Assembly (NCBI GenBank): GCA_027485835.1
Contig: JAIXQG010000002.1
Location: forward strand, 138,232 to 202,231
Origin: Alphaproteobacteria bacterium
GTDB lineage: Bacteria > Pseudomonadota > Alphaproteobacteria > UBA2136 > UBA6156
DNA: 64,000 nucleotides
Direction of reading: 5' to 3'
Shown: piece after piece, positions 33,638-53,835 of the stretch
Numbering within the stretch: the stretch's first letter is position 1
How the letters are laid out: every line of letters starts with the position of its first letter
Made by a program: the position numbers and the translations under genes
Notes under the pieces: model-generated
Seen by the model: only the letters and a program-made list of their open reading frames with translations
Told to the model about the DNA's origin: nothing
Databases searched by the model: none

Positions 33638-35242
33638 TTAATCCAGCTTGGCTTTTAAAGTCGCCTTGCGCAGCATGCGGGCCAGCGGAGGCACAACTTT
33701 GGCCAAACGGTCTGCCAACTGGCCCAGCAACTGGCGGCGGCTCAGCACAAACTGCATGTTCAGCACCACACCCAGCAGTGGGGCACCTACCAGCAGCAAG
33801 CTATCGGTGGCGCGCTTAAGCTCGGACTGTGTGGTGACACCCGCTTGCGCCAGCAGCAGCGTGCGAGCACTTGCAGAAGCGACAGCAACAGCATCCACAT
33901 TCCCGCGGTTCACGGCGGCCAGCGGGCTACCATCCACAATCACGATATCGGCCATGTCGGTCAGCATATCGAACAGTACCGGCAAACCACCCGCCTCGCC
34001 CAGCTTGCTCAGGGTTTCCGGATGGCGCGGTGCGGCCAGAAGCTTCATATTCTCGTTACCGGGCATGGGTTGCAAAGCATCCCAGCCGCCTTTTTTGGGT
34101 TTGGCGCCCTTCGGCAATTCCCAGTTACCATCGCCCAAGCCCAGCCATTGGCTCAGCATACGGTCACGCAGGTTCATATCGACCAGAATCACGGTTTTAC
34201 CTTGCTCAGATGTCCGTTCCGCCAACAGCAGGGCCAGCGTGCTGCTGCCTTCCGAGCCCTTCGGCCCCAAAACCACTAACGGCCCACGCAGGTTGCGCAC
34301 CAGAGAGCGGTGCAGGCGGCCGAGCTCACTGAACTCCGACGGGCGCAGCTTTTTGCCACCGGCCATCACATGCAGACCGCGCGGGGTAATATTCAGTTTG
34401 CCCAGCCACGGCAGGGTACCCACAACTTGCATATCACTGGCCTTAGTTGCGTCATCTTCACCTTCAATCACCGCACGGTTGGCAAAGGGCAGCTTTTGCA
34501 GCAAGCCGAACAGCAGGCCACCGAGCAGACCCGCCAGAATCATGTTCGCTACAACACGGGCAGTACCTTGCAGCGGCTCACTCATCGTCGCGGTTTCGGC
34601 AAACCATACCAGCGCTTGGCTCCCGTGGCGGCCAAAGGCTAAATTCACACGGCGCAGGTCGCTTTGCAGCTGCACGGTGTCGCCCTGCAATTTTTCGCTA
34701 CGGGCGTTCAATTCCAAGCGGGTCGCTTCGTCGGCACCATCGGAGGTGGCCAAACGACCGACGATTTCTTTCAGCTCCTGCTGGTTTTGCAGAATCATCT
34801 GCTCCAAGCGCATGCGCTCCGGTGCCAGCAAGGCCTGAATAAAGTTATAGGCCAGTGCATCCGTCATCTGCTCCAAACCTTCCGGCTTGGTGCTGCGGTA
34901 GCTGATGGTCATCAAATTGTTGTTAATGACGCGCAGCGAGACCTTATCGGCCTCAATCTTACGGTGTGCATCAGCACCTGTATCTGCTAGCAATTGCGGG
35001 TTGACCAAAATCTGGCGTAAAGCTTCACCCTGACCAGGCGCGCTAATACTCTGTAACAGTGGCGATTTCGCTTGATCCGACTGCACTTGCAACAAGGCGG
35101 TAGCCTCAAATGTGGGCGGCACCTGCACGCTGTAAATTGCCGCCAGCAGAGTGAACACCACTACAGGCACACCTATTTTGACGCGCACGCGCCACATTTC
35201 TGCCAATGTATTCAAGATGATATTCATAGAGCGCGCTTTCAT
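33638..35242 (-). CDS. polysaccharide co-polymerase (Wzz/GumC/ExoP-like) protein with degenerate C-terminal BY-kinase-like ATPase domain
   Basis: 534 aa with N-terminal TM + periplasmic coiled-coil + second TM topology. C-terminal P-loop-like 'VVLGPKGSEGSSTLA' lacks the Walker-A Lys (GKS->GSS). 'VILVDMNLRD' is a degenerate Walker A'. 'DIVIVDGSP' is Walker-B-like. Confidence 0.65.
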   Translation of the reverse strand: MKARSMNIILNTLAEMWRVRVKIGVPVVVFTLLAAIYSVQVPPTFEATALLQVQSDQAKSPLLQSISAPGQGEALRQILVNPQLLADTGADAHRKIEADKVSLRVINNNLMTISYRSTKPEGLEQMTDALAYNFIQALLAPERMRLEQMILQNQQELKEIVGRLATSDGADEATRLELNARSEKLQGDTVQLQSDLRRVNLAFGRHGSQALVWFAETATMSEPLQGTARVVANMILAGLLGGLLFGLLQKLPFANRAVIEGEDDATKASDMQVVGTLPWLGKLNITPRGLHVMAGGKKLRPSEFSELGRLHRSLVRNLRGPLVVLGPKGSEGSSTLALLLAERTSEQGKTVILVDMNLRDRMLSQWLGLGDGNWELPKGAKPKKGGWDALQPMPGNENMKLLAAPRHPETLSKLGEAGGLPVLFDMLTDMADIVIVDGSPLAAVNRGNVDAVAVASASARTLLLAQAGVTTQSELKRATDSLLLVGAPLLGVVLNMQFVLSRRQLLGQLADRLAKVVPPLARMLRKATLKAKLD

Positions 35243-35488
35243 TGCGTTGTGCCTCGTGGGGCTTCTTTTTTACCGAGGGCCAAAGCCCACCTTTGTTGGT
35301 TGGATATTATAGAGAGGTGCACAAGTCTGGCAATGGTGCTGCCAGACATATCGGCAACCACGATGCACAACACCTTCATACGCTTGACACTTCCGCAACA
35401 TCAGCCTATATCGCCCTCACTACACCCGCGCGTTTAGGCGTTTAGCGGTCTGTGTAGGAGTTATATCAACGAACGGAGAGTATTAGCC

Positions 35489-35920
35489 ATGGCTAAGAAA
35501 ATCGCCGGCTTCGTCAAGCTGCAAGTGCCAGCTGGCGCCGCCAACCCGGCCCCGCCCGTAGGTCCCGCTCTGGGCCAAAAGGGTTTGAACATTATGGAAT
35601 TCTGCAAGGCCTTCAACGCTGCCACCCAGCCGCCGAAGTTTGCCGCAGGCACCCCGATTCCCGTCATCATCACCGCATACGCCGACCGTACCTTCACCTT
35701 CGAGCTGAAGACCCCGCCGGCCAGCTGGTACCTGATGCAAGCCGCCAGCATTAAAAAGGGCGCCAAAACCCCGAACGTGCCGATCGGCCAAGTTAAGCGC
35801 GCTGAAGTGAAGAAAATTGCTGAAGCCAAGATGGTCGACCTCAACGCCAACTCTGTTGAGCAAGCCATGAAGATTATTGAAGGCAGCGCCCGCTCTATGG
35901 GCCTGACCGTAGTAGACTAA
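35489..35920 (+). CDS. rplK: 50S ribosomal protein L11
   Basis: 143 aa with '[43 protein letters not shown]', uL11. Confidence 0.97.
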
Positions 35921-35934
35921 GGAAGGACACGACC

Positions 35935-36642
35935 ATGGCTACTAAGAAGTCCACTAAACTCACCTCCGCCAAGCCGAAAAAGGTTTTCCCGGAGTTTGAC
36001 CGCCTGAAGGCCTACAGCCTTGATGAAGCGCTGAAGCTGCTGGCTACCATGCCGGCTGCCAAGTTCGACGAATCCGTCGACGTTGCGCTGAACCTGGGCG
36101 TAGACCCCAAGTATAACGACCAAATGGTACGTGGCGTTGTGTCGCTGCCCCACGGCAACGGTAAAACCGTCCGCGTGGCCGTGTTCGCCAAGGGCGCCGC
36201 TGCCGATGAAGCCCGTGCCGCCGGTGCCGACGTTGTGGGCCTGGAAGATCTGATTGCTCAGGTTGAAAAGGGCGACATCAACTTCGACCGTGTAATCGCG
36301 ACCCCCGACTGCATGCCGCAGCTTGGTAAAATCGCCCGTATCCTCGGCCCGAAAGGCATGATGCCGAACCCAAAGCTGGGCACCGTAACCCCCAACGTGG
36401 CCAAGGCCGTGAAGGACGTTAAGGGCGGGATGATCGAGTTCAAGGTTGAAAAAGCCGGTATCATCCACGCCGGTGTCGGCAAGCGCAGCTTCTCCTCCGA
36501 CAAGCTGGCTGCCAACATCAAGGCCTTGGTAGACGCTGTGAAGGCCGCCAAGCCCTCCGGCGCCAAGAGCAACTACCTGCTGAAGCTGGCGATTACCGCC
36601 ACTCAAGCCCCTGCCATCAAGGTAGACTTGAGCAGCCTGTAA
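35935..36642 (+). CDS. rplA: 50S ribosomal protein L1
   Basis: 235 aa uL1. Confidence 0.97.
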   Translation: MATKKSTKLTSAKPKKVFPEFDRLKAYSLDEALKLLATMPAAKFDESVDVALNLGVDPKYNDQMVRGVVSLPHGNGKTVRVAVFAKGAAADEARAAGADVVGLEDLIAQVEKGDINFDRVIATPDCMPQLGKIARILGPKGMMPNPKLGTVTPNVAKAVKDVKGGMIEFKVEKAGIIHAGVGKRSFSSDKLAANIKALVDAVKAAKPSGAKSNYLLKLAITATQAPAIKVDLSSL

Positions 36643-36738: not shown

Positions 36739-37080
36739 TTAACCGCCCGCCTTTTCCGAAAACATCTCACGCTTGTCTTCGGCGTCGAGGTCAGCCATTT
36801 CGGCAGCCTCAGGCAGCGGGCCCTTGCTTTCGGAAATATTGGGCCAAATGGCGCTATAGCGCTGGTTGAGATTGGCCCAGTGTAGCTCGTTCGGGCCAAG
36901 CTCTTCATCCGACTTAATCGCTTCAATCGGGCATTCCGGCTCGCATACTCCGCAGTCAATGCATTCGTCCGGGTTAATTACCAGCATATTCTCGCCTTCA
37001 TAAAAGCAACTGACCGGGCAAACTTCCACGCAATCGGTATAGCGGCATTTAATGCATTTTCCGGTAACGACGAACGGCAT
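36739..37080 (-). CDS. fdxA: 7Fe ferredoxin (Azotobacter FdxA-type, [3Fe-4S][4Fe-4S])
   Basis: Start at [51 protein letters not shown], preceded by an aaggagag SD. Two Cys clusters. Confidence 0.88.
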
Positions 37081-37211
37081 GATTCTCTCCTTGAATTTCG
37101 GCACATGGTTACCCTCATTCATGCCGCTTGGCAACAGGGGGCACGCTTGCTTGCAGCCTCATATGTGTGAACGCGGGACTTGCCTGCCATTTCGGGGTAA
37201 CTTACCACAAA

Positions 37212-38288
37212 ATGAAACAAAAGCGCCTGACCAGGTCTGTTTTGGCTATGCCGCACATGTTAGCGGCTTTAGCGGTGCTTTTGTGCGTGCCTGCCGCGCC
37301 AGTCTCGGCTTCCAGCGAGCTCTTTGCACCCACCGACGTCACGGTACGCTATAATCCGATTGGGTATGTGAAGAATTTTCTATTCCCCCCAAAGGCAACC
37401 GAGCAGGCCGAAGCCGCGTTACAGACCTATGCCACGATCGAACCGGCCTCCGGCGGTGCAGAACCCAAAGCCGAAGGACATGGCGAAGCCAAAGCGGAGG
37501 GTCATGGTACGTCCAAAGGTGAAGGTGGCGGCCATGGCGAACCCAAAGCTACCGGTAAAAGCGAAGGCAAGAAGAGCTTTAGTGGTAAAACCATTGGCGC
37601 TATACCCGAGCTGCCGACCGTGACTATCGGTGGCAAGTCAGTCATCAGCAAAGCCGAGCAAACTGCGAACGAACTCAATGATACCACTCCGGAAGGGATT
37701 CGCGAACCCATGATGTTACAGCATCTGGACCGGCGCTTTTCCGTGACACCCTATGCCCACAGCCCTAAGCGGGGCGCCAATGGCGCACAAATTACGGCGA
37801 TTGTCTTTACCGACTTTTCCTGTGGTCAGTGCATGCCGGAACTGACCAAGATTGATGCCGCCTTGGCAGGAGTTTCTAATACCGTGCAAACCATTCACAT
37901 CCATGCACCGATGGTGCGGTTTCAGGACACGAACATGCCGGCCTTTTACGGCAAGGTGGCGGCGCGGGGTGGCGTGTTTTGGAAATACCGTGACATGCTG
38001 CTGGCTAAGCCCACAGTTGAGGCCAACGTGTTGTTTGATAACCTGATTGCCAGCGGCATGGATGTGGCCCAAGCCCGCAGCCTGATGCTGACCGACGCAC
38101 GACGCTTTTACCGCGAGTTGGATGCCGACAGCCTGCTCGCGCGCAGCTTTGGCATCACCAACCCGCCAGTTGTGTTTGTAAATGGCATCCGTGTTGGATT
38201 TGGGGGCATCCCGTTAGAAAAATTGAAAGATGTTCTGGATTACCTGCACAAGCGTATTGAACGCGGCATGAATGAACCGCCGAAGTAA
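37212..38288 (+). CDS. secreted DsbA-like thiol:disulfide oxidoreductase with N-terminal (A/E)-K-A-E-G-H-G repeat region
   Basis: Signal peptide (MKQKRLTRSVLAMPHMLAALAVLLCVPAAPVSA). His/Gly repeats 'EPKAEGHGEAKAEGHGTSKGEGGGHGEPKATGKSEG'. C-terminal thioredoxin fold with CxxC 'FSCGQCM'. Confidence 0.68.
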   Translation: MKQKRLTRSVLAMPHMLAALAVLLCVPAAPVSASSELFAPTDVTVRYNPIGYVKNFLFPPKATEQAEAALQTYATIEPASGGAEPKAEGHGEAKAEGHGTSKGEGGGHGEPKATGKSEGKKSFSGKTIGAIPELPTVTIGGKSVISKAEQTANELNDTTPEGIREPMMLQHLDRRFSVTPYAHSPKRGANGAQITAIVFTDFSCGQCMPELTKIDAALAGVSNTVQTIHIHAPMVRFQDTNMPAFYGKVAARGGVFWKYRDMLLAKPTVEANVLFDNLIASGMDVAQARSLMLTDARRFYRELDADSLLARSFGITNPPVVFVNGIRVGFGGIPLEKLKDVLDYLHKRIERGMNEPPK

Positions 38289-38303
38289 CGCGAGGACAGA
38301 CCC

Positions 38304-40322
38304 ATGAGCACCTCCCTTCGCCACGCCATCAACAGTTTTAGCGAGCAATTGCAGCACCGCCAGCAAGAACGGCGCACCCAACGCATTGCCGCCACGCGTG
38401 CGGAGCAAGAAGACTCCACGACCATGGCGTCGATTCCGCTAAGCCCGGATGTAAGGGCCTTCTTCACCCATATCGCCCAAAGCGTTCAACGAGACCGCCA
38501 GCGTTACCATTTAGCTATCGCTATGGGGGTTGAGAATAGCGAACAGAACGCTGCCGCCAACGCTGTGCCAGGAGCGTTGCCAGATGAATCTCCGTTCAGC
38601 ATTGTCGAAGCTCCTGAGAATCAGGATGCCGCCGCGGTTGCACTGGCCCATGTTTCTCCCGGGCCACATGTGCTGTTGCTCTGGGATGAGTGGATGCGCA
38701 ACGAGCGCCTGATACCAAGTGTGGAAGACAGCCAAAGCATGGGCCGCAGCCCCTGCGGAGCCCTGCTGGTGGCAGAACTGAACAAACTGACGCAAGATAC
38801 TACCGCCAAACCTGCCATGGCGATGAGCCTGATTGGCAAAACCAAGCAATCGGTACAAGCGTTTCTGGATGGTCGCACCAATGACGCCGTAACCTTGCTG
38901 AAAAACGCCCTGCAGAGCGACCCCCATAACCACAGCATTCTGATGTCGCTCTCGCAAATCTCCTACTGGCTGGCGACCAAGGGTGTGCAAAACGTATTGC
39001 CGGAAGCCCGTGATTTTGCCCAACGCAGTACCATTTACAGCGAGAAACAAACTCCCTCGCAAATGGCGTTTTATCAATATACGGCGATTGTGACCGAAAG
39101 CGCCTTCGGTCCCGAGCGTACACTCGAATGGCTGCGTGACAGCGGCATGCTGAACACCGATAATTTCTCGGATAACGGAGACTCCCTGCTTGCCGAACGC
39201 GGTCTTTACCTGCGCGCTTGGTACCTGCTTTCCCAAGTACCTGTTGAGCTCTGGCATGAAGCGGAATTCCGGGCCTTGCTCAACCTCGTTACCAAAGTGG
39301 TTGGTGGGGCCACAGTGTATCTTGCATGGTTCCGTACCCCCCTGCTTACCGCAGCCAGCCTAGGGAAAGATATCCCGATTCTGGAAGAAATCGAGAGACT
39401 GGTACATAGCGCATACCGCCTGCATAGCAACCACTATACAGCCTTTCAACAACTTAGTCCGCAAAGTGGCGATAAACCGTGGTTGCTACGGGTACGCTTC
39501 TTAAGTGCTGTCAAGGCGATCATGACAGTGCCGGCTTTCGATCAGGCCGCCCTGCATTTTTCTCTCGACGGCCAGAGCTGGGAGGAGAATATGACTCCCG
39601 ACCCGGAACTGCGCGCCACCACCGGCTTGCGTGAGTTAACCTATTGGCGCCTGTGGGCACTGGTGCTTACGCCGTATAAGGATATCCGGCAACCCTACCT
39701 GATGCCGGCCGAGGAAACCGCCAGTGACCTCAGCCTACTTGCCAGTTGCGAAGAGCTTTTAACAACCCTTGCCACCACCGAACGCAACCTGATTAAAGCC
39801 CACCTGTGGGATGATTTAAAACCTTGGCTGGTGCGCTGGCAGTTAGAGCACCTGTTAGCCGCCAGCACCGGCAGTAACAAGCCCCGCAGCCGTTTTGCGC
39901 CCAGCCTGCCGCCCTACACCCATTTGTACCGTGCTTGGCAAGACCCGCCCATTTCCTCACTTTTGCCGAGCGAAATTATTGCCGAGAATGCCCGACGCGG
40001 TGCGTTTGCCAGTTTCTTTGAAATTACCGCGGCACTGGAAGGCGCCAACCGCCTGATTAACGACCCTGTGCACGGGCTGGTTGCCAGCCAGAAACGCGCT
40101 TTAGCCGCCGCCAACCGTTATAACCCGAAAAAATTCAAAACCGTCGCGCAGGAATTTGGCAGTAGCGGCGGCAGCGGGCTCCTCATGCTGCTGATGCCCG
40201 TGGGCTTGCTGGGGCTGATGGCGGCGGTGTTCACCTTCAGTGCCAACTGGGGCCAAGCACTGGGGCTTATGCTCGCGCTGGGGGGAGTGGCGGGTGTTGT
40301 GGCACTCAATCTCAAGAAATAA
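38304..40322 (+). CDS. hypothetical 672-aa protein, TPR-like alpha-helical, with C-terminal double-TM anchor
   Basis: The start codon lies 15 nt after the dsbA-like stop, so an operon is likely. No recognised catalytic motifs. The C-terminus 'LLMLLMPVGLLGLMAAVFTFSANWGQALGLMLALGGVAGVVAL' is hydrophobic. Confidence 0.55.
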   Translation: MSTSLRHAINSFSEQLQHRQQERRTQRIAATRAEQEDSTTMASIPLSPDVRAFFTHIAQSVQRDRQRYHLAIAMGVENSEQNAAANAVPGALPDESPFSIVEAPENQDAAAVALAHVSPGPHVLLLWDEWMRNERLIPSVEDSQSMGRSPCGALLVAELNKLTQDTTAKPAMAMSLIGKTKQSVQAFLDGRTNDAVTLLKNALQSDPHNHSILMSLSQISYWLATKGVQNVLPEARDFAQRSTIYSEKQTPSQMAFYQYTAIVTESAFGPERTLEWLRDSGMLNTDNFSDNGDSLLAERGLYLRAWYLLSQVPVELWHEAEFRALLNLVTKVVGGATVYLAWFRTPLLTAASLGKDIPILEEIERLVHSAYRLHSNHYTAFQQLSPQSGDKPWLLRVRFLSAVKAIMTVPAFDQAALHFSLDGQSWEENMTPDPELRATTGLRELTYWRLWALVLTPYKDIRQPYLMPAEETASDLSLLASCEELLTTLATTERNLIKAHLWDDLKPWLVRWQLEHLLAASTGSNKPRSRFAPSLPPYTHLYRAWQDPPISSLLPSEIIAENARRGAFASFFEITAALEGANRLINDPVHGLVASQKRALAAANRYNPKKFKTVAQEFGSSGGSGLLMLLMPVGLLGLMAAVFTFSANWGQALGLMLALGGVAGVVALNLKK

Positions 40323-40486: not shown

Positions 40487-40684
40487 ATGGCAAAGCGCGG
40501 TGGTAACAGCATTTTCATCAAGATGGTCAGCACAGCCCTGAAGGCTGATGGCAAGAAGACCGGTTACTTTTACGTAACCCGTAAGAACCCGAAGAGCGTG
40601 AACACCACCGAAAAGCTGGAAATGCGCAAGTACGACCCGGTTGTTCGCCAGCACGTCATCTTCAAAGAAGAAAAGATGAAGTAG
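40487..40684 (+). CDS. rpmG: 50S ribosomal protein L33
   Basis: 'MAKRGG...[40 protein letters not shown]' matches bL33. Confidence 0.9.
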
Positions 40685-40712
40685 TCGTTCTTACTTGATT
40701 GCAGGGGCCAAC

Positions 40713-40740
40713 ATGGCCCCTTTTTTGTTGCGCAGCAATT
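40713..40740 (+). terminator. rho-independent terminator after rpmG (ggggcc-aacat-ggcccc + T6)
   Basis: Read directly from sequence. Confidence 0.6.
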
Positions 40741-40783
40741 TTATGAGGTATACAAACAGGTTCTCGCCTTTCAGGAGGAACAC

Positions 40784-41074
40784 ATGATCTCGTCTACTGA
40801 AAACTTTGTTATTTCGTGCAATGACGTACCCGTCATCCTGTTTCTCTCCGATGTGGGAGGAATTCAGGGCCATGTGGTCACCGAATTGAACAAAACGGCC
40901 AACAGGAAGTATCCGCAACTCACGCCGCTGATCAAGGCCCATTACTTAGGGGATCAGGTTGTCGGCGATTTGCCCGTTGTTAAGTTGGCAACGCCTCAAG
41001 ATAAGGATGCCGCCATTACTTCCGCTGAGGAATGGCTGGAGAATCACTTCAGCTTGACAGCCTCCCTTCTCTGA
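40784..41074 (+). CDS. hypothetical protein (96 aa)
   Basis: Near-perfect SD (caggaggaacac ATG). A terminator hairpin lies at 41088-41115. No family recognised. Confidence 0.45.
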   Translation: MISSTENFVISCNDVPVILFLSDVGGIQGHVVTELNKTANRKYPQLTPLIKAHYLGDQVVGDLPVVKLATPQDKDAAITSAEEWLENHFSLTASLL

Positions 41075-41125
41075 TACAATCCCACACGATATGCGAAGGC
41101 GCCCCTTACGGGCGCCTTTACGCGT

Positions 41126-52017: not shown

Positions 52018-52626
52018 ATGGCGTCTTACTGCATCTTCGATACCGAATACACGACATGGGAAGGCGCACAGGCCACCCGCTGGAACGGGCGCGGGCAGCA
52101 TCGCGAGGTGTTTCAGATAGGTGCGGTACGGGTGGAAGAGGGTAAAGCTTGGGAGGAACTGGAAACGCTCAGCTTGCTGATACGCCCCCAGCTTAACCCC
52201 GTATTAAGCGCTTACGCGACCCAGCTTACGGGCATAACTCAAGACATGTTGGAACGTGATGGGCTGGAGACGCCTGAGGCTTTGGCGCGGTTTGCCGCGT
52301 TTAGCGGTAACTTGCCCGTATTTTCCAACGGCATGGACCTGCATATTGTGGCGGAAACCTGCGGGTTGCAAAAAGTGATCATGCCGTTAGATCCGCGCCA
52401 GTATTTCTCGCTTCACTATCCCCTCTATGCGGCTTTGGATGCGCATTTTGCGTTTGATCACCGCGAGTATGTCTCTGGCCGCCTGCATGAGCTTGCGCGC
52501 CTTGAGCCCCCTAGCAAGATGGGTGGCGTGCATAATGCGCTGCACGATGTGTGGTCGCTTTTTGCGACCTGCGCATGGCTGAAACAGCAGGGTACCGATG
52601 TTATCGGCGACCTTTTGAAGGCTTAA
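52018..52626 (+). CDS. DEDDh 3'-5' exonuclease, ERI-1/KapD-like (paralog 1)
   Basis: Exo I 'IFDTEYTTWEG', 'IRPQLNPVLSAYATQLTGITQDML' (ERI-1-like segment), Exo III 'HNALHDV'. Confidence 0.78.
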   Translation: MASYCIFDTEYTTWEGAQATRWNGRGQHREVFQIGAVRVEEGKAWEELETLSLLIRPQLNPVLSAYATQLTGITQDMLERDGLETPEALARFAAFSGNLPVFSNGMDLHIVAETCGLQKVIMPLDPRQYFSLHYPLYAALDAHFAFDHREYVSGRLHELARLEPPSKMGGVHNALHDVWSLFATCAWLKQQGTDVIGDLLKA

Positions 52627-53037: not shown

Positions 53038-53092
53038 ATCTTCATATTACCATGATTCAGAATTCGTTACGCCCATTTTACCGTAAGAAATT

Positions 53093-53127
53093 TGACATTT
53101 CCTATAGACATATGTATACACGAATCA
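53093..53127 (+). promoter_or_regulatory. candidate promoter TTGACA-N17-TATACA upstream of exonuclease paralog 2
   Basis: Read directly from sequence in the AT-rich divergent intergenic region. Confidence 0.3.
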
Positions 53128-53154
53128 CACGAGGCCTACAGAGGGAATACCACT

Positions 53155-53835
53155 ATGCCTGATGCATCCCATGTTATTTTTGACACTGAATATGCCACTG
53201 ATGAAGGCGCTCGCGATAGCGACTGGGGTTGCCTCGGTCACCACCGCGAAATCATTCGCATCGGTGCAGCGCGCATCGTTCCGGGCCAACCTTGGGAGAG
53301 CTTTGAAACGCTCGACTTGCTGGTTAATCCGGTATTTGCAGCGCATACCGCCTATACCGAACAGATCACCGGCATCACCCAGGAAATGTTGGATGTAGAT
53401 GGTTGTGATGCTGAACGTGCTTTCCGGCAACTTTATATGTTTATTGATGGTTTGCCCGCGCTTTCGAACGGCAATGACATCAACAAGATTGCCGAAACTG
53501 CCGGACTACAGGGATTCGTCATGCCTTTTGACCCCCTCGAATTCGGTAGTGTACTGAAGCCGATGTATCGGGAACTGGCCAAACACGTTGCCCCTGAATT
53601 GCCTGAGCGGCCATGGGTGAACCACTCCTCCGGCACACTCCACAGACTGGTGGGCATTGACCTGCCGGAAGGATTGGGGGAAGTGCACAACCCGTTGCGC
53701 AACGTCTGGTCGATCCACGTCACACTGGAAGCCCTGCACGAAAGGTACAATGCCGACGTCGTTTCGGAAGTTCTGGATGGAATGGCCAAACGAAAGAGTG
53801 CGTTTAATTACCATTATATGCGAATGGACGATTAA
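53155..53835 (+). CDS. DEDDh 3'-5' exonuclease, ERI-1/KapD-like (paralog 2)
   Basis: Start at MPDASHVIFDTEYATDEG. Same motif set as paralog 1 ('EQITGITQEML', 'HNPLRNV'). Confidence 0.78.
   Translation: MPDASHVIFDTEYATDEGARDSDWGCLGHHREIIRIGAARIVPGQPWESFETLDLLVNPVFAAHTAYTEQITGITQEMLDVDGCDAERAFRQLYMFIDGLPALSNGNDINKIAETAGLQGFVMPFDPLEFGSVLKPMYRELAKHVAPELPERPWVNHSSGTLHRLVGIDLPEGLGEVHNPLRNVWSIHVTLEALHERYNADVVSEVLDGMAKRKSAFNYHYMRMDD

Follow-up and report, generated by a model that had tools for sequence, protein, structure and literature searches.

What a gene for a large membrane-anchored helical protein is doing directly behind one for a secreted disulfide enzyme is the question raised by this locus. 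In the window, by which we mean the whole 64,000-nt stretch of DNA that was analysed, the gene for a protein that we call X starts 15 nt past the stop codon of a secreted DsbA-family gene (37212-38288), and the task is to establish what X is, on which side of the membrane it lies and whether the two products are likely to serve a common process.

A large all-alpha protein of restricted distribution

The X reading frame is real: it opens with ATG, and GAGGA serves as its ribosome-binding site. The following elements can be placed along it upstream of its membrane anchor.

38304..40322, + strand: gene X, encoding a 672-aa tail-anchored all-alpha protein (ORF; 31 close homologues; 57 representative clusters; AF2 model)
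38292..38296, + strand: Shine-Dalgarno-like GAGGA, 7 nt before the ATG and within the 15-nt spacer (sequence)
38310..38411, + strand: N-terminal Arg/Gln/Glu-rich helix, aa 3-36 (AF2 secondary structure; alignment)
38553..38657, + strand: Pro/Ala/Glu-rich linker, aa 84-118, predicted disordered (pLDDT <50 for residues 81-114)
38823..39149, + strand: TPR-like repeats, aa 174-282, including a DPHNH turn and an invariant LPEAR motif
39888..39947, + strand: RFAPSLPPYTxLYRxW segment, aa 529-548, a candidate partner-binding motif (conservation; the binding role is putative)

The AF2 model of X consists entirely of helices and is of moderate quality, the alignment behind it being shallow (pLDDT 74.9, pTM 0.65). 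The N-terminal helix is kept in the close clade (mean conservation 3.1 bits) but poorly kept in the wider family (1.28 bits), and the linker, whose length varies among relatives, is the least conserved region. Within the repeats, aa 187-219 give a weak, sub-threshold match to TPR_19 (E=0.0037; 18 bits, the cut-off being 25) that recurs in 9 of 37 family members. DPxN is the canonical TPR turn, and the alignment reveals one in X; the model also superposes on solved TPR domains, with matches to generic TPR only. Two segments, aa 419-469 and 529-548, are conserved but poorly modelled (for the second, 3.78 bits in the close clade, yet pLDDT <50 for 529-545), which makes them candidate client or partner sites.

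Neither the family alignment nor family database scans revealed a catalytic signature. Invariance across the family is confined to nine residues, most of them Trp, Gly, Pro or Ala. The window protein has just two cysteines and no CxxC pair; among the 37 members cysteine positions are not conserved, and their number is odd in 20, with no bias towards even counts. A metal-binding or catalytic reading of DPHNH and of C151/C482 was rejected, since the wider family does not keep them and DPxN belongs to the TPR turn.

Scans of the window protein against Pfam, NCBIfam and PADLOC, and of the 37 members against Pfam and NCBIfam, returned no family and only sub-threshold TPR matches, and a sequence-profile search of the PDB gave no match. 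An exhaustive profile search of 1.84 billion representative proteins recovered only 57 relatives, all of similar length (640-750 aa), and no remote homologue outside the family; the three weakest matches (P0085-P0087) are fragments of family members and not independent domains. A genome scan with the single X sequence found two loci. Every named relative comes from a metagenome-assembled genome of uncultured Alphaproteobacteria, and the SecY of the host lineage, which has no cultured member, is only 56% identical to that of the nearest named genus. Judged by these searches, X represents a new family that matches no described one and is specific to an uncultured alphaproteobacterial clade. The original prediction of a 672-aa frame 15 nt behind a DsbA-like gene, encoding a large alpha-helical protein of unknown family with a C-terminal double-TM anchor and no recognisable catalytic motif, is borne out on each point: by the ORF and its spacer, by the AF2 model and hydropathy, by the small and non-catalytic set of invariant residues, and by profile, PDB, Pfam, NCBIfam and structure searches that yielded nothing beyond a generic TPR likeness.

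The membrane anchor and the orientation of X

The only hydrophobic segments of X, aa 625-645 and 652-670, lie at the extreme C-terminus.

40176..40238, + strand: TM helix 1, aa 625-645, with a near-invariant Pro632 (hydropathy; alignment)
40239..40256, + strand: periplasmic turn SANWGQ, six residues, aa 646-651 (conservation)
40257..40313, + strand: TM helix 2, aa 652-670, Gly/Ala-rich and followed by a C-terminal KK (hydropathy; alignment)

The hairpin with its turn is the best-conserved region of X in the close clade, the turn reaching 3.96 bits, the highest of all regions, so that in this clade the anchor must do more than tether the protein passively. Across the family none of the 37 members has a signal peptide or other hydrophobic anchor at the N-terminus (19-residue hydropathy peaks at no more than 1.46 over the first ~118 residues), and all hydrophobic segments fall within the last ~60 residues, with K/R on both flanks. 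Three relatives (P0052, P0053 and P0080) have a single terminal TM helix, lack the SANWGQ turn and expose virtually nothing to the periplasm; the two-helix hairpin of the window protein and most relatives occupies the last ~50 residues and shares their N-in orientation. A strict definition of tail-anchored proteins, with a single TM within the last ~30 residues, would leave this hairpin outside its wording.

Because an N-terminal signal is lacking, K/R surround the anchor, the cysteines are not conserved and the single-TM relatives have no periplasmic exposure, the bulk domain (~620 residues) is predicted to be cytoplasmic, with the membrane separating it from the exported DsbA-like protein. 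The topology analysis of the 37 members (hydropathy and K/R flanks) thereby settles on the cytoplasm and not the periplasm as the side of the bulk domain, and it undercuts the earlier suggestion that X serves the disulfide enzyme as a substrate or chaperone platform. For the helical domain to be periplasmic and play such a part, some 620 charged residues would have to cross the membrane with no signal, for which we know of no precedent; with positive charge on both sides of the hairpin, and two cysteines in the window protein that the wider family does not keep, we give this arrangement very little credence, and X is very unlikely to be a substrate of the DsbA-like enzyme. A DsbB-like role was likewise rejected, there being no cysteines in the hairpin or the turn.

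The DsbA-like partner and the gene neighbourhood

The neighbouring product and the remaining elements of the locus were assigned as follows.

37212..38288, + strand: partner gene, DsbA-family thiol:disulfide oxidoreductase, 358 aa (Pfam, AF2, Foldseek, PDB profile), with a signal peptide at aa 1-33, a His/Gly/Glu-rich disordered stretch at nt 37458-37574, a CGQC motif at nt 37821-37832 and Pro-Pro at the cis-Pro position at about nt 38163
36739..37080, - strand: fdxA, 7Fe-type ferredoxin with a DUF3470 tail, divergent (Pfam; synteny)
37127..37135, no strand assigned: CTTGGCAAC, the window copy of the near-palindrome GTTGGCAAC, in the fdxA/dsbA-like intergenic region (MAFFT alignment of 10 intergenic regions)
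40487..40684, + strand: rpmG (ribosomal protein L33), 164 nt downstream of X (ORF, translation)
40703..40721, + strand: intrinsic-terminator-like hairpin with a T-run after rpmG, 8 pairs, 6 of them G-C (pattern match)

Pfam matches of the partner to DSBA/Thioredoxin_4 are weak in the window protein and above threshold in orthologues, for which PF13462 was recorded. Its thioredoxin fold with an inserted helical domain is well modelled (pLDDT >90 for aa 125-340), and Foldseek gives a probability of 1.00 to 3gyk (TMt 0.79), to Wolbachia alpha-DsbA2 and B. subtilis BdbD (TMt 0.72-0.76 for these two) and to ScsC, with a PDB profile match to BdbD (E=5.7e-5). In an alignment of 39 sequences, C192 and C195 of the catalytic CxxC are invariant, as is P307 of the cis-proline loop, while P306 is nearly so (numbering of P0088, the window partner called from Met-13 with 346 aa); the CxxC is kept in all orthologues. 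The window protein and 19 orthologues begin with a hydrophobic stretch and an AxA cleavage motif, followed by a conserved mature ELF... end, so that the enzyme should be exported to the periplasm and, by this signature, be soluble there once the signal peptide is cleaved. No DsbB/VKOR gene is present in any fetched locus. The search for the partner family gave 64 matches before a drop to E=9e-17, a distribution as narrow as that of X with its 57 clusters, and the partner constitutes a distinct DsbA subfamily, as restricted as X, rather than a generic DsbA.

In each of the 13 independent loci whose upstream sequence is available, a Thioredoxin_4-type gene lies directly upstream of X, abutting or overlapping it, in keeping with the original view of the two genes as co-operonic. 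The pairing holds down to 17% X identity and over 28 to 64% GC. In most loci the two genes overlap by 4 nt or 1 nt or lie 1 nt apart, with a gap of 10-15 nt in the closest relatives; the single-TM relatives retain the pairing as well. A literature search on the module returned nothing relevant. DsbA-like gene plus X is a new pairing.

How much this adjacency says about function has to be judged against its surroundings. Relatives with as little as 28% X identity retain the whole block of rplKA, Wzz-like, fdxA, the pair, rpmG, xthA, bolA, EAL, GGDEF and recJ in synteny, which makes adjacency alone weaker evidence than it looks. X could on that view scaffold an unrelated process (polarity, division, envelope synthesis or c-di-GMP signalling) and merely sit in an old, stable operon with a housekeeping DsbA, an account to which the conservation of the whole 12-gene neighbourhood, the separation of the products into different compartments and the lack of periplasmic exposure in single-TM relatives lend some weight. 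Yet the genes overlap or abut in 13/13 loci and are never split, despite insertions elsewhere in the block in L012, L013 and L014; the pair persists in L008 (X 17% identity, 28% GC) although both flanks have changed; and the partner belongs to its own equally restricted subfamily. We regard a purely historical synteny as somewhat unlikely, while taking it seriously. In one metagenomic contig the X gene is truncated beside an IS21 element, which suggests that X may be dispensable.

The divergent fdxA adjoins the pair in every locus that extends far enough upstream. The near-palindrome GTTGGCAAC is conserved between fdxA and the dsbA-like gene in relatives (10 regions) and shows no enrichment in the window; the two genes may use it as a common promoter or operator element. 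A sigma-54 promoter reading of the conserved TTGGCAAC was discarded, since relatives do not keep its -12 element and the window shows no enrichment of the motif. Downstream, rpmG follows X in most loci and may close the transcription unit. The hairpin after it is the only strong + strand candidate downstream of the DsbA-like start, in a window whose total of terminator-like structures does not exceed the shuffle expectation. No Rfam RNA elements were found in the window.

The ribosomal genes nearby (rpmG downstream, rplKA upstream), together with a tail-anchored architecture and a basic N-terminal helix, recall proteins such as YqjD/ElaB/YgaM, in which case X would tether ribosomes through its Arg-rich helix, as has precedent (bioRxiv 10.1101/2024.08.16.608256; PMC6389858). 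X is 6-7 times larger than the YqjD type, no member matches DUF883/YqjD in Pfam at E<=0.1, the helix falls to 1.28 bits in the wider family and L008 has lost the rpmG adjacency; this role is therefore hard to credit.

Translational coupling, which would co-dose both proteins, and the conserved, poorly modelled segments of X might instead befit a dedicated cytoplasmic receptor or chaperone that passes the DsbA-like precursor, or cysteine-rich secretory clients, to the export machinery, extended peptides being common ligands of TPR domains. Such a role is improbable, as the signal peptide of the DsbA-like protein is an ordinary Sec-type one, X has no homology to the SecB, SRP, Get or T3SS-chaperone families, and a highly conserved protein of ~670 aa is large for a single-client chaperone.

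A proposed role and its relation to known systems

The reading that we favour, tentatively and with a probability of about 0.4, is that X is a non-enzymatic scaffold or adaptor, tail-anchored on the cytoplasmic face, that takes part in the same envelope process as the periplasmic DsbA-like enzyme. An all-alpha, partly TPR-like solenoid of ~620 residues would lie in the cytoplasm, following a basic helix at the N-terminus and a disordered linker, and the C-terminal hairpin, or single terminal helix in some relatives, would hold the protein in the inner membrane. X would be translated directly after, and probably coupled to, the secreted oxidoreductase, the two genes forming with the divergent fdxA a lineage-specific cassette of this uncultured clade. 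X would act on the cytoplasmic face in a process that the DsbA-like enzyme serves from the periplasm, following the logic of LapB/YciM, an adaptor whose activity is set by a partner with a periplasmic domain. Direct contact between the two proteins has no obvious route, because the enzyme is predicted to be soluble in the periplasm and X exposes at most six residues there. The analysis establishes the reading frame and its conservation, the fold class, the topology signals, the coupling of the genes and the narrow distribution; the scaffold role, a link to the DsbA-like protein, be it functional or physical, and any clients are inferred.

A bolder version, which we consider unlikely, is that the pair forms a two-compartment envelope module in which X would be the cytoplasmic arm of a periplasmic thiol-oxidation system, sensing or setting oxidative protein folding from across the membrane. 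X might then recruit, for example, a protease, a synthase or export machinery, with the relay provided by the hairpin, itself conserved, or by a third membrane protein.

In bacteria, tail-anchored proteins of large size are rare and have received little study, and LapB-type membrane-tethered cytoplasmic TPR adaptors are key regulators of envelope biogenesis. The X family offers a closed, well-defined set (57 clusters in 1.84 billion representative proteins) with a tail-anchored cytoplasmic TPR-like architecture. If its coupling to the DsbA-like gene is functional, it would point to coordination of periplasmic oxidative folding with cytoplasmic events and would give a first physiological handle on this alphaproteobacterial lineage, which lacks cultured members; should the coupling be a matter of history alone, X is one more lineage-specific protein of unknown function.

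Among known systems, CcmI/CycH with CcmH/CcmG and NrfG with NrfF, both in cytochrome c maturation, are genetic pairs of a membrane-anchored TPR protein and a periplasmic CxxC protein of thioredoxin fold. This likeness raises the prospect that X serves a thiol-redox protein in cytochrome c maturation as a TPR partner of the CcmI/CycH or NrfG type, for which we see next to no chance: the topology is opposite, with periplasmic TPR after N-terminal TM helices in CcmI and NrfG and a cytoplasmic TPR-like domain before C-terminal helices in X, none of the 37 members matches CcmI or NrfG in NCBIfam or Pfam, and ccm genes, like nrf neighbours, are absent from all loci. CnoX/YbbN combines thioredoxin and TPR domains in a single soluble cytoplasmic polypeptide, whereas here two proteins lie in different compartments. 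Fis1 is a eukaryotic tail-anchored TPR-like adaptor with cytosol-facing helices, a C-terminal anchor and a recruitment role, and X resembles it by analogy only, in its cytosol-facing TPR-like helices on a C-terminal membrane anchor.

The partner resembles Wolbachia alpha-DsbA2, B. subtilis BdbD, ScsC and BcfH in its thioredoxin fold with helical insertion, CxxC, cis-Pro and signal peptide. It differs from known Thioredoxin_4-type DsbAs in an unusual and variable CxxC dipeptide (GQ, GL, NQ, EE, DE, QT), the Pro-Pro in the cis-Pro loop, a long N-terminal His/Gly/Glu-rich disordered extension and the strict coupling of its gene to X.

The bacterial tail-anchored proteins DjlC, Flk, YqjD/ElaB/YgaM and TssL carry an extreme C-terminal hydrophobic segment and a cytoplasmic domain (PMC6794478, PMC6389858), and X is like them in having no N-terminal signal, a hydrophobic C-terminus and a predicted cytoplasmic domain. 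They are small or of known families, whereas X is 640-750 aa long, usually has a two-helix hairpin and matches no family.

A parallel to the proposed role is LapB (YciM) of E. coli and Salmonella, a cytoplasmic TPR adaptor with a membrane anchor that is under the control of YejM/PbgA (PMC11046580, PMC7157816). There is no sequence or global structural match between the two, and the curated LapB model of NCBIfam matches none of the 37 X members at E<=0.1. LapB has an N-terminal anchor helix and a terminal rubredoxin-type zinc finger, X a C-terminal anchor and two cysteines only; the LapB partner is a polytopic membrane sensor, that of X a soluble DsbA-like enzyme. What X would share with LapB is the architecture of an inner-membrane-anchored, cytoplasm-facing TPR-like adaptor with no enzymatic activity, and LapB, by working with a partner that bears a periplasmic domain (YejM/PbgA/LapC), links envelope status to cytoplasmic events (PMC11046580, PMC7157816).

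The gene pair and its products

The analysis concerns two neighbouring genes:

37212-38288, forward strand: secreted DsbA-like (Thioredoxin_4) protein, the partner
38304-40322, forward strand: 672-aa protein with a C-terminal membrane anchor, here called X

The open frame of X is present as originally predicted, with an ATG start and 672 codons, a length that has a chance probability of ~1e-9 at the window's stop-triplet frequency of 0.03. Its GC3 (0.64) is in line with that of neighbouring genes, and its start is well placed because the N-terminus (MS..LRHA...) is kept among aligned relatives. The partner's TAA stop lies at 38286-38288, and the 15-nt spacer claimed for the pair can be read directly between 38288 and 38304, with GAGGA 7 bases ahead of the X ATG. 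The partner most likely starts at the ATG at 37212 (MKQKRL...) rather than at the maximal ORF start at 37128; from this ATG it carries a hydrophobic signal peptide that ends between VSA and SSELF.

In the window (38286-38306) and in the closest related locus, L001 (9983-10003), partner and X share a frame, with only TAA and five codons between them. In the remaining loci the genes overlap by 4 or 1 nt or lie 1-10 nt apart with differing frames, so the in-frame layout looks incidental.

The AlphaFold2 model of the partner (P0088, the window protein from Met-13, 346 aa) has pLDDT >90 over residues 125-340 and matches DsbA-type structures with a Foldseek probability of 1.00, including 3gyk from Silicibacter (TMt 0.79), Wolbachia alpha-DsbA2, BdbD, ScsC, MdbA and BcfH; ScsC proteins are copper-related. 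A sequence profile also leads to BdbD (E=5.7e-5). The CxxC cysteines are invariant (39 of 39 sequences) around a varying inner dipeptide (GQ, GL, NQ, EE, DE or QT), and the cis-proline position is Pro-Pro. An AxA-type signal peptide was seen in all orthologues examined, and the mature end, (A/S)ELFPxTEVTxRY, is conserved in the close clade. Residues 67-109 form a disordered, His/Gly/Glu/Lys-rich stretch (window 37458-37574, forward strand; AEPKAEGHGEAKAEGHG...GGGHGEPK), which is variable in form in close orthologues and missing from distant ones, and which might bind metal.

X has just two hydrophobic segments by Kyte-Doolittle analysis (residues 625-645 and 652-670), separated by the six-residue turn SANWGQ and followed by a C-terminal KK, in agreement with the predicted double-TM anchor. 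Its AlphaFold2 model, made with 31 homologues as input, consists entirely of helices, as had been anticipated (mean pLDDT 74.9, pTM 0.65).

Features of X in the AlphaFold2 model
Residues 3-36: long Arg/Gln/Glu-rich helix
Residues 48-83: second helix
Residues 81-114: variable Pro/Ala/Glu-rich linker, low confidence
Residues ~120-610: helical-repeat body
C-terminus: two membrane helices

Topology, conservation and family

In all 37 aligned family members the first ~118 residues are free of hydrophobic segments (maximum 19-residue hydropathy 1.46), essentially all hydrophobic segments fall within the last ~60 residues, and both the flanks of these segments and the C-terminal tails are K/R-rich. 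The lack of an N-terminal hydrophobic segment and the K/R flanks point to a hairpin of N-in, C-in orientation and predict that the bulk domain, whose side of the membrane the original prediction had left to be established, is cytoplasmic. We hold this architecture and topology with considerable confidence, and much more firmly than any functional coupling to the partner.

The suggestion that X might be a substrate or periplasmic chaperone platform is unsupported, given this topology; the cysteines, which are odd in number in 20 of 37 members and unconserved in position, whereas a protein that a disulfide oxidase helps to fold should show the reverse; and two members with a single terminal helix, P0052 and P0080, in which the DsbA-like gene still abuts upstream. 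A periplasmic substrate of the DsbA-like enzyme is thus very unlikely.

Three members (P0052, P0053 and P0080; L015 5001-6908, L008 6001-7929) have one terminal hydrophobic helix in place of the hairpin and are predicted to be classical tail-anchored proteins. The second helix and periplasmic turn are therefore clade-specific additions, and the turn cannot serve all members as a docking site. Within the close clade no part of X is better conserved than the hairpin, above all its turn (3.96 bits), which suggests that the anchor there is more than a passive tether. Residues 419-469 and 529-548 reach 3.5-3.8 bits in this clade, yet are unplaced by AlphaFold2.

Searching 5.8 billion clusters by word index returned 31 full-length homologues (46-100% identity), all annotated as hypothetical, the few named ones coming from Alphaproteobacteria MAGs. 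A profile built from these 31 and run against the full set of 1.84 billion representatives at 50% identity found only 57 proteins at E<=1e-3, nearly all of 590-750 aa, the shorter ones being fragments. The family is undescribed. Its architecture (N-terminal helix, variable linker, solenoid and hydrophobic C-terminus) is retained down to 17% identity in the 37-member alignment, throughout which only A235, R236, W317, G335, P410, W448, W451, E493 and F568 are invariant. C151, C482 and the DPHNH motif keep their invariance within the close clade and lose it across the wider family, and were therefore dropped as catalytic or metal-binding hallmarks.

The window is core chromosome, with secY, adk, GcrA, rpoD, dnaG, recJ and ribosomal protein genes. 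Its SecY has 70-91% identity matches only in unnamed Alphaproteobacteria or 'Proteobacteria' MAGs, and is 56% identical to that of the nearest named genus, Thalassospira; the names Blastochloris viridis and Pseudomonas fluorescens on two genome records are therefore automatic labels. GC content of loci with the family ranges from 28% to 64%.

Conservation of the gene pair

Co-conservation of the two genes, a point that the original prediction had proposed to check, is borne out: a Thioredoxin_4/DsbA-like gene lies immediately upstream of X on the same strand in 13 of 13 independent loci whose sequence extends 5' of X (the window, L001, L002, L003, L005, L006, the P0063 contig, L008, L009 and L012-L015), and about a dozen further pairs could be matched through the length of their contigs. 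Junctions are a 4-nt (ATGA) or 1-nt overlap or a 1-nt gap, or 10-15 nt in the closest relatives. Of three look-ups begun from the partner side, two led to X homologues of full length, with 44% and 37% identity; in the third (L014 6165-7708) the X gene breaks off at ~residue 218 before an IS21-family IstB gene, either through a natural disruption or through a join made during assembly.

The main rival explanation is that the pairing reflects inherited operon structure with no shared function. Every locus extending far enough has, ahead of the pair, a divergently oriented fdxA, whose product is a 7Fe ferredoxin with a DUF3470 tail. The order rplKA / Wzz-like / fdxA / pair / rpmG / xthA / bolA / EAL / GGDEF / recJ holds even at 28% X identity, so adjacency alone is weaker evidence than it appears. 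The evidence for coupling is stronger than adjacency: partner and X are never split despite insertions elsewhere in the block (L012, L013, L014); the fdxA-pair unit is intact in L008, where both flanks have changed; and the partner, whose 64 matches all come from the same kind of MAGs before a drop to E=9e-17, is a restricted subfamily in its own right. We regard mere inheritance as rather unlikely.

Between X and rpmG, a pattern search of the window found no terminator-like site; behind rpmG it found a good one (40703-40721), so the transcription unit may, on this pattern match, be dsbA-like-X-rpmG. The fdxA/dsbA-like intergenic region holds a near-palindrome, (G/C)TTGGCAAC (window 37127-37135), conserved in L001, L002, L003, L006, L013 and L014; the window is not enriched in it (31 matches where 21.7 +/- 4.9 would be expected, one mismatch allowed).

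Other features of the window
33638-36642: rplA-rplK-(Wzz/P-loop-like gene) block, inverted in the window and L001 (5344-8344) relative to seven other related loci (L002, L003, L006, L012-L015), which parts rplKA from rplJL
33638-35242, reverse strand: 534-aa protein that begins with a Wzz (chain-length determinant) domain and has a P-loop region weakly of MinD/ParA type; adjoins rplK in every related locus, even at 33% identity, and is an unusual gene to find conserved beside a ribosomal protein operon
40722-41125: ~400-nt gap from the rpmG terminator to xthA with short ORFs only (96 aa forward, 83 aa reverse; no family match); a 68-aa gene is called at the matching place in L006
42270-45281, forward strand: 688-aa protein with a C-terminal EAL domain and a long N-terminal region without family matches, then a GGDEF protein; in the majority of related loci the two are conserved together behind bolA
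52018-52626 and 53092-53835, forward strand: neighbouring genes with RNase_T-type exonuclease domains and similar N-termini (FDTEYTTWEGA / FDTEYATDEGA), probably paralogues

Rfam gave no family at gathering score, tRNA included, over window positions 1-64000.

Likely role and relation to known systems

No catalytic signature was found in X, as first proposed, and folds of this type are typically used for protein binding. Together with the conserved segments that AlphaFold2 left unplaced and the membrane tether, this suggests that X would be a non-enzymatic adaptor or scaffold at the cytoplasmic face of the inner membrane, and the tight translational arrangement suggests that X and the secreted DsbA-type enzyme may contribute to a single envelope-related process, each from its own side of the membrane. 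Taken as one combined statement, a LapB-like adaptor or scaffold sharing an envelope process with its partner, this reading is tentative, with a probability of roughly 0.4; a trans-membrane module tying periplasmic oxidative folding to a cytoplasmic adaptor is doubtful. Other roles for a membrane-anchored X seem less probable still: a dedicated export or targeting receptor is improbable, a ribosome tether like YqjD/ElaB, against which stands the absence of any DUF883 match in the family, is highly improbable, and a CcmI/NrfG-like role is the least probable.

In terms of function, the adaptor reading comes closest to LapB/YciM (PMC11046580, PMC7157816), a cytoplasmic TPR adaptor that is anchored in the membrane and whose activity is controlled by a partner carrying a periplasmic domain. 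X differs from LapB on every point compared: it is anchored by the opposite end, lacks the zinc finger and gives no model match. A literature search on the pairing gave nothing, in keeping with the original view that this is not a described module. Of the building blocks, TPR scaffolds are already known, and so are tail-anchored proteins (PMC6794478). Undescribed, like the family itself, is a tail-anchored solenoid that faces the cytoplasm and is paired with a secreted DsbA-like enzyme.
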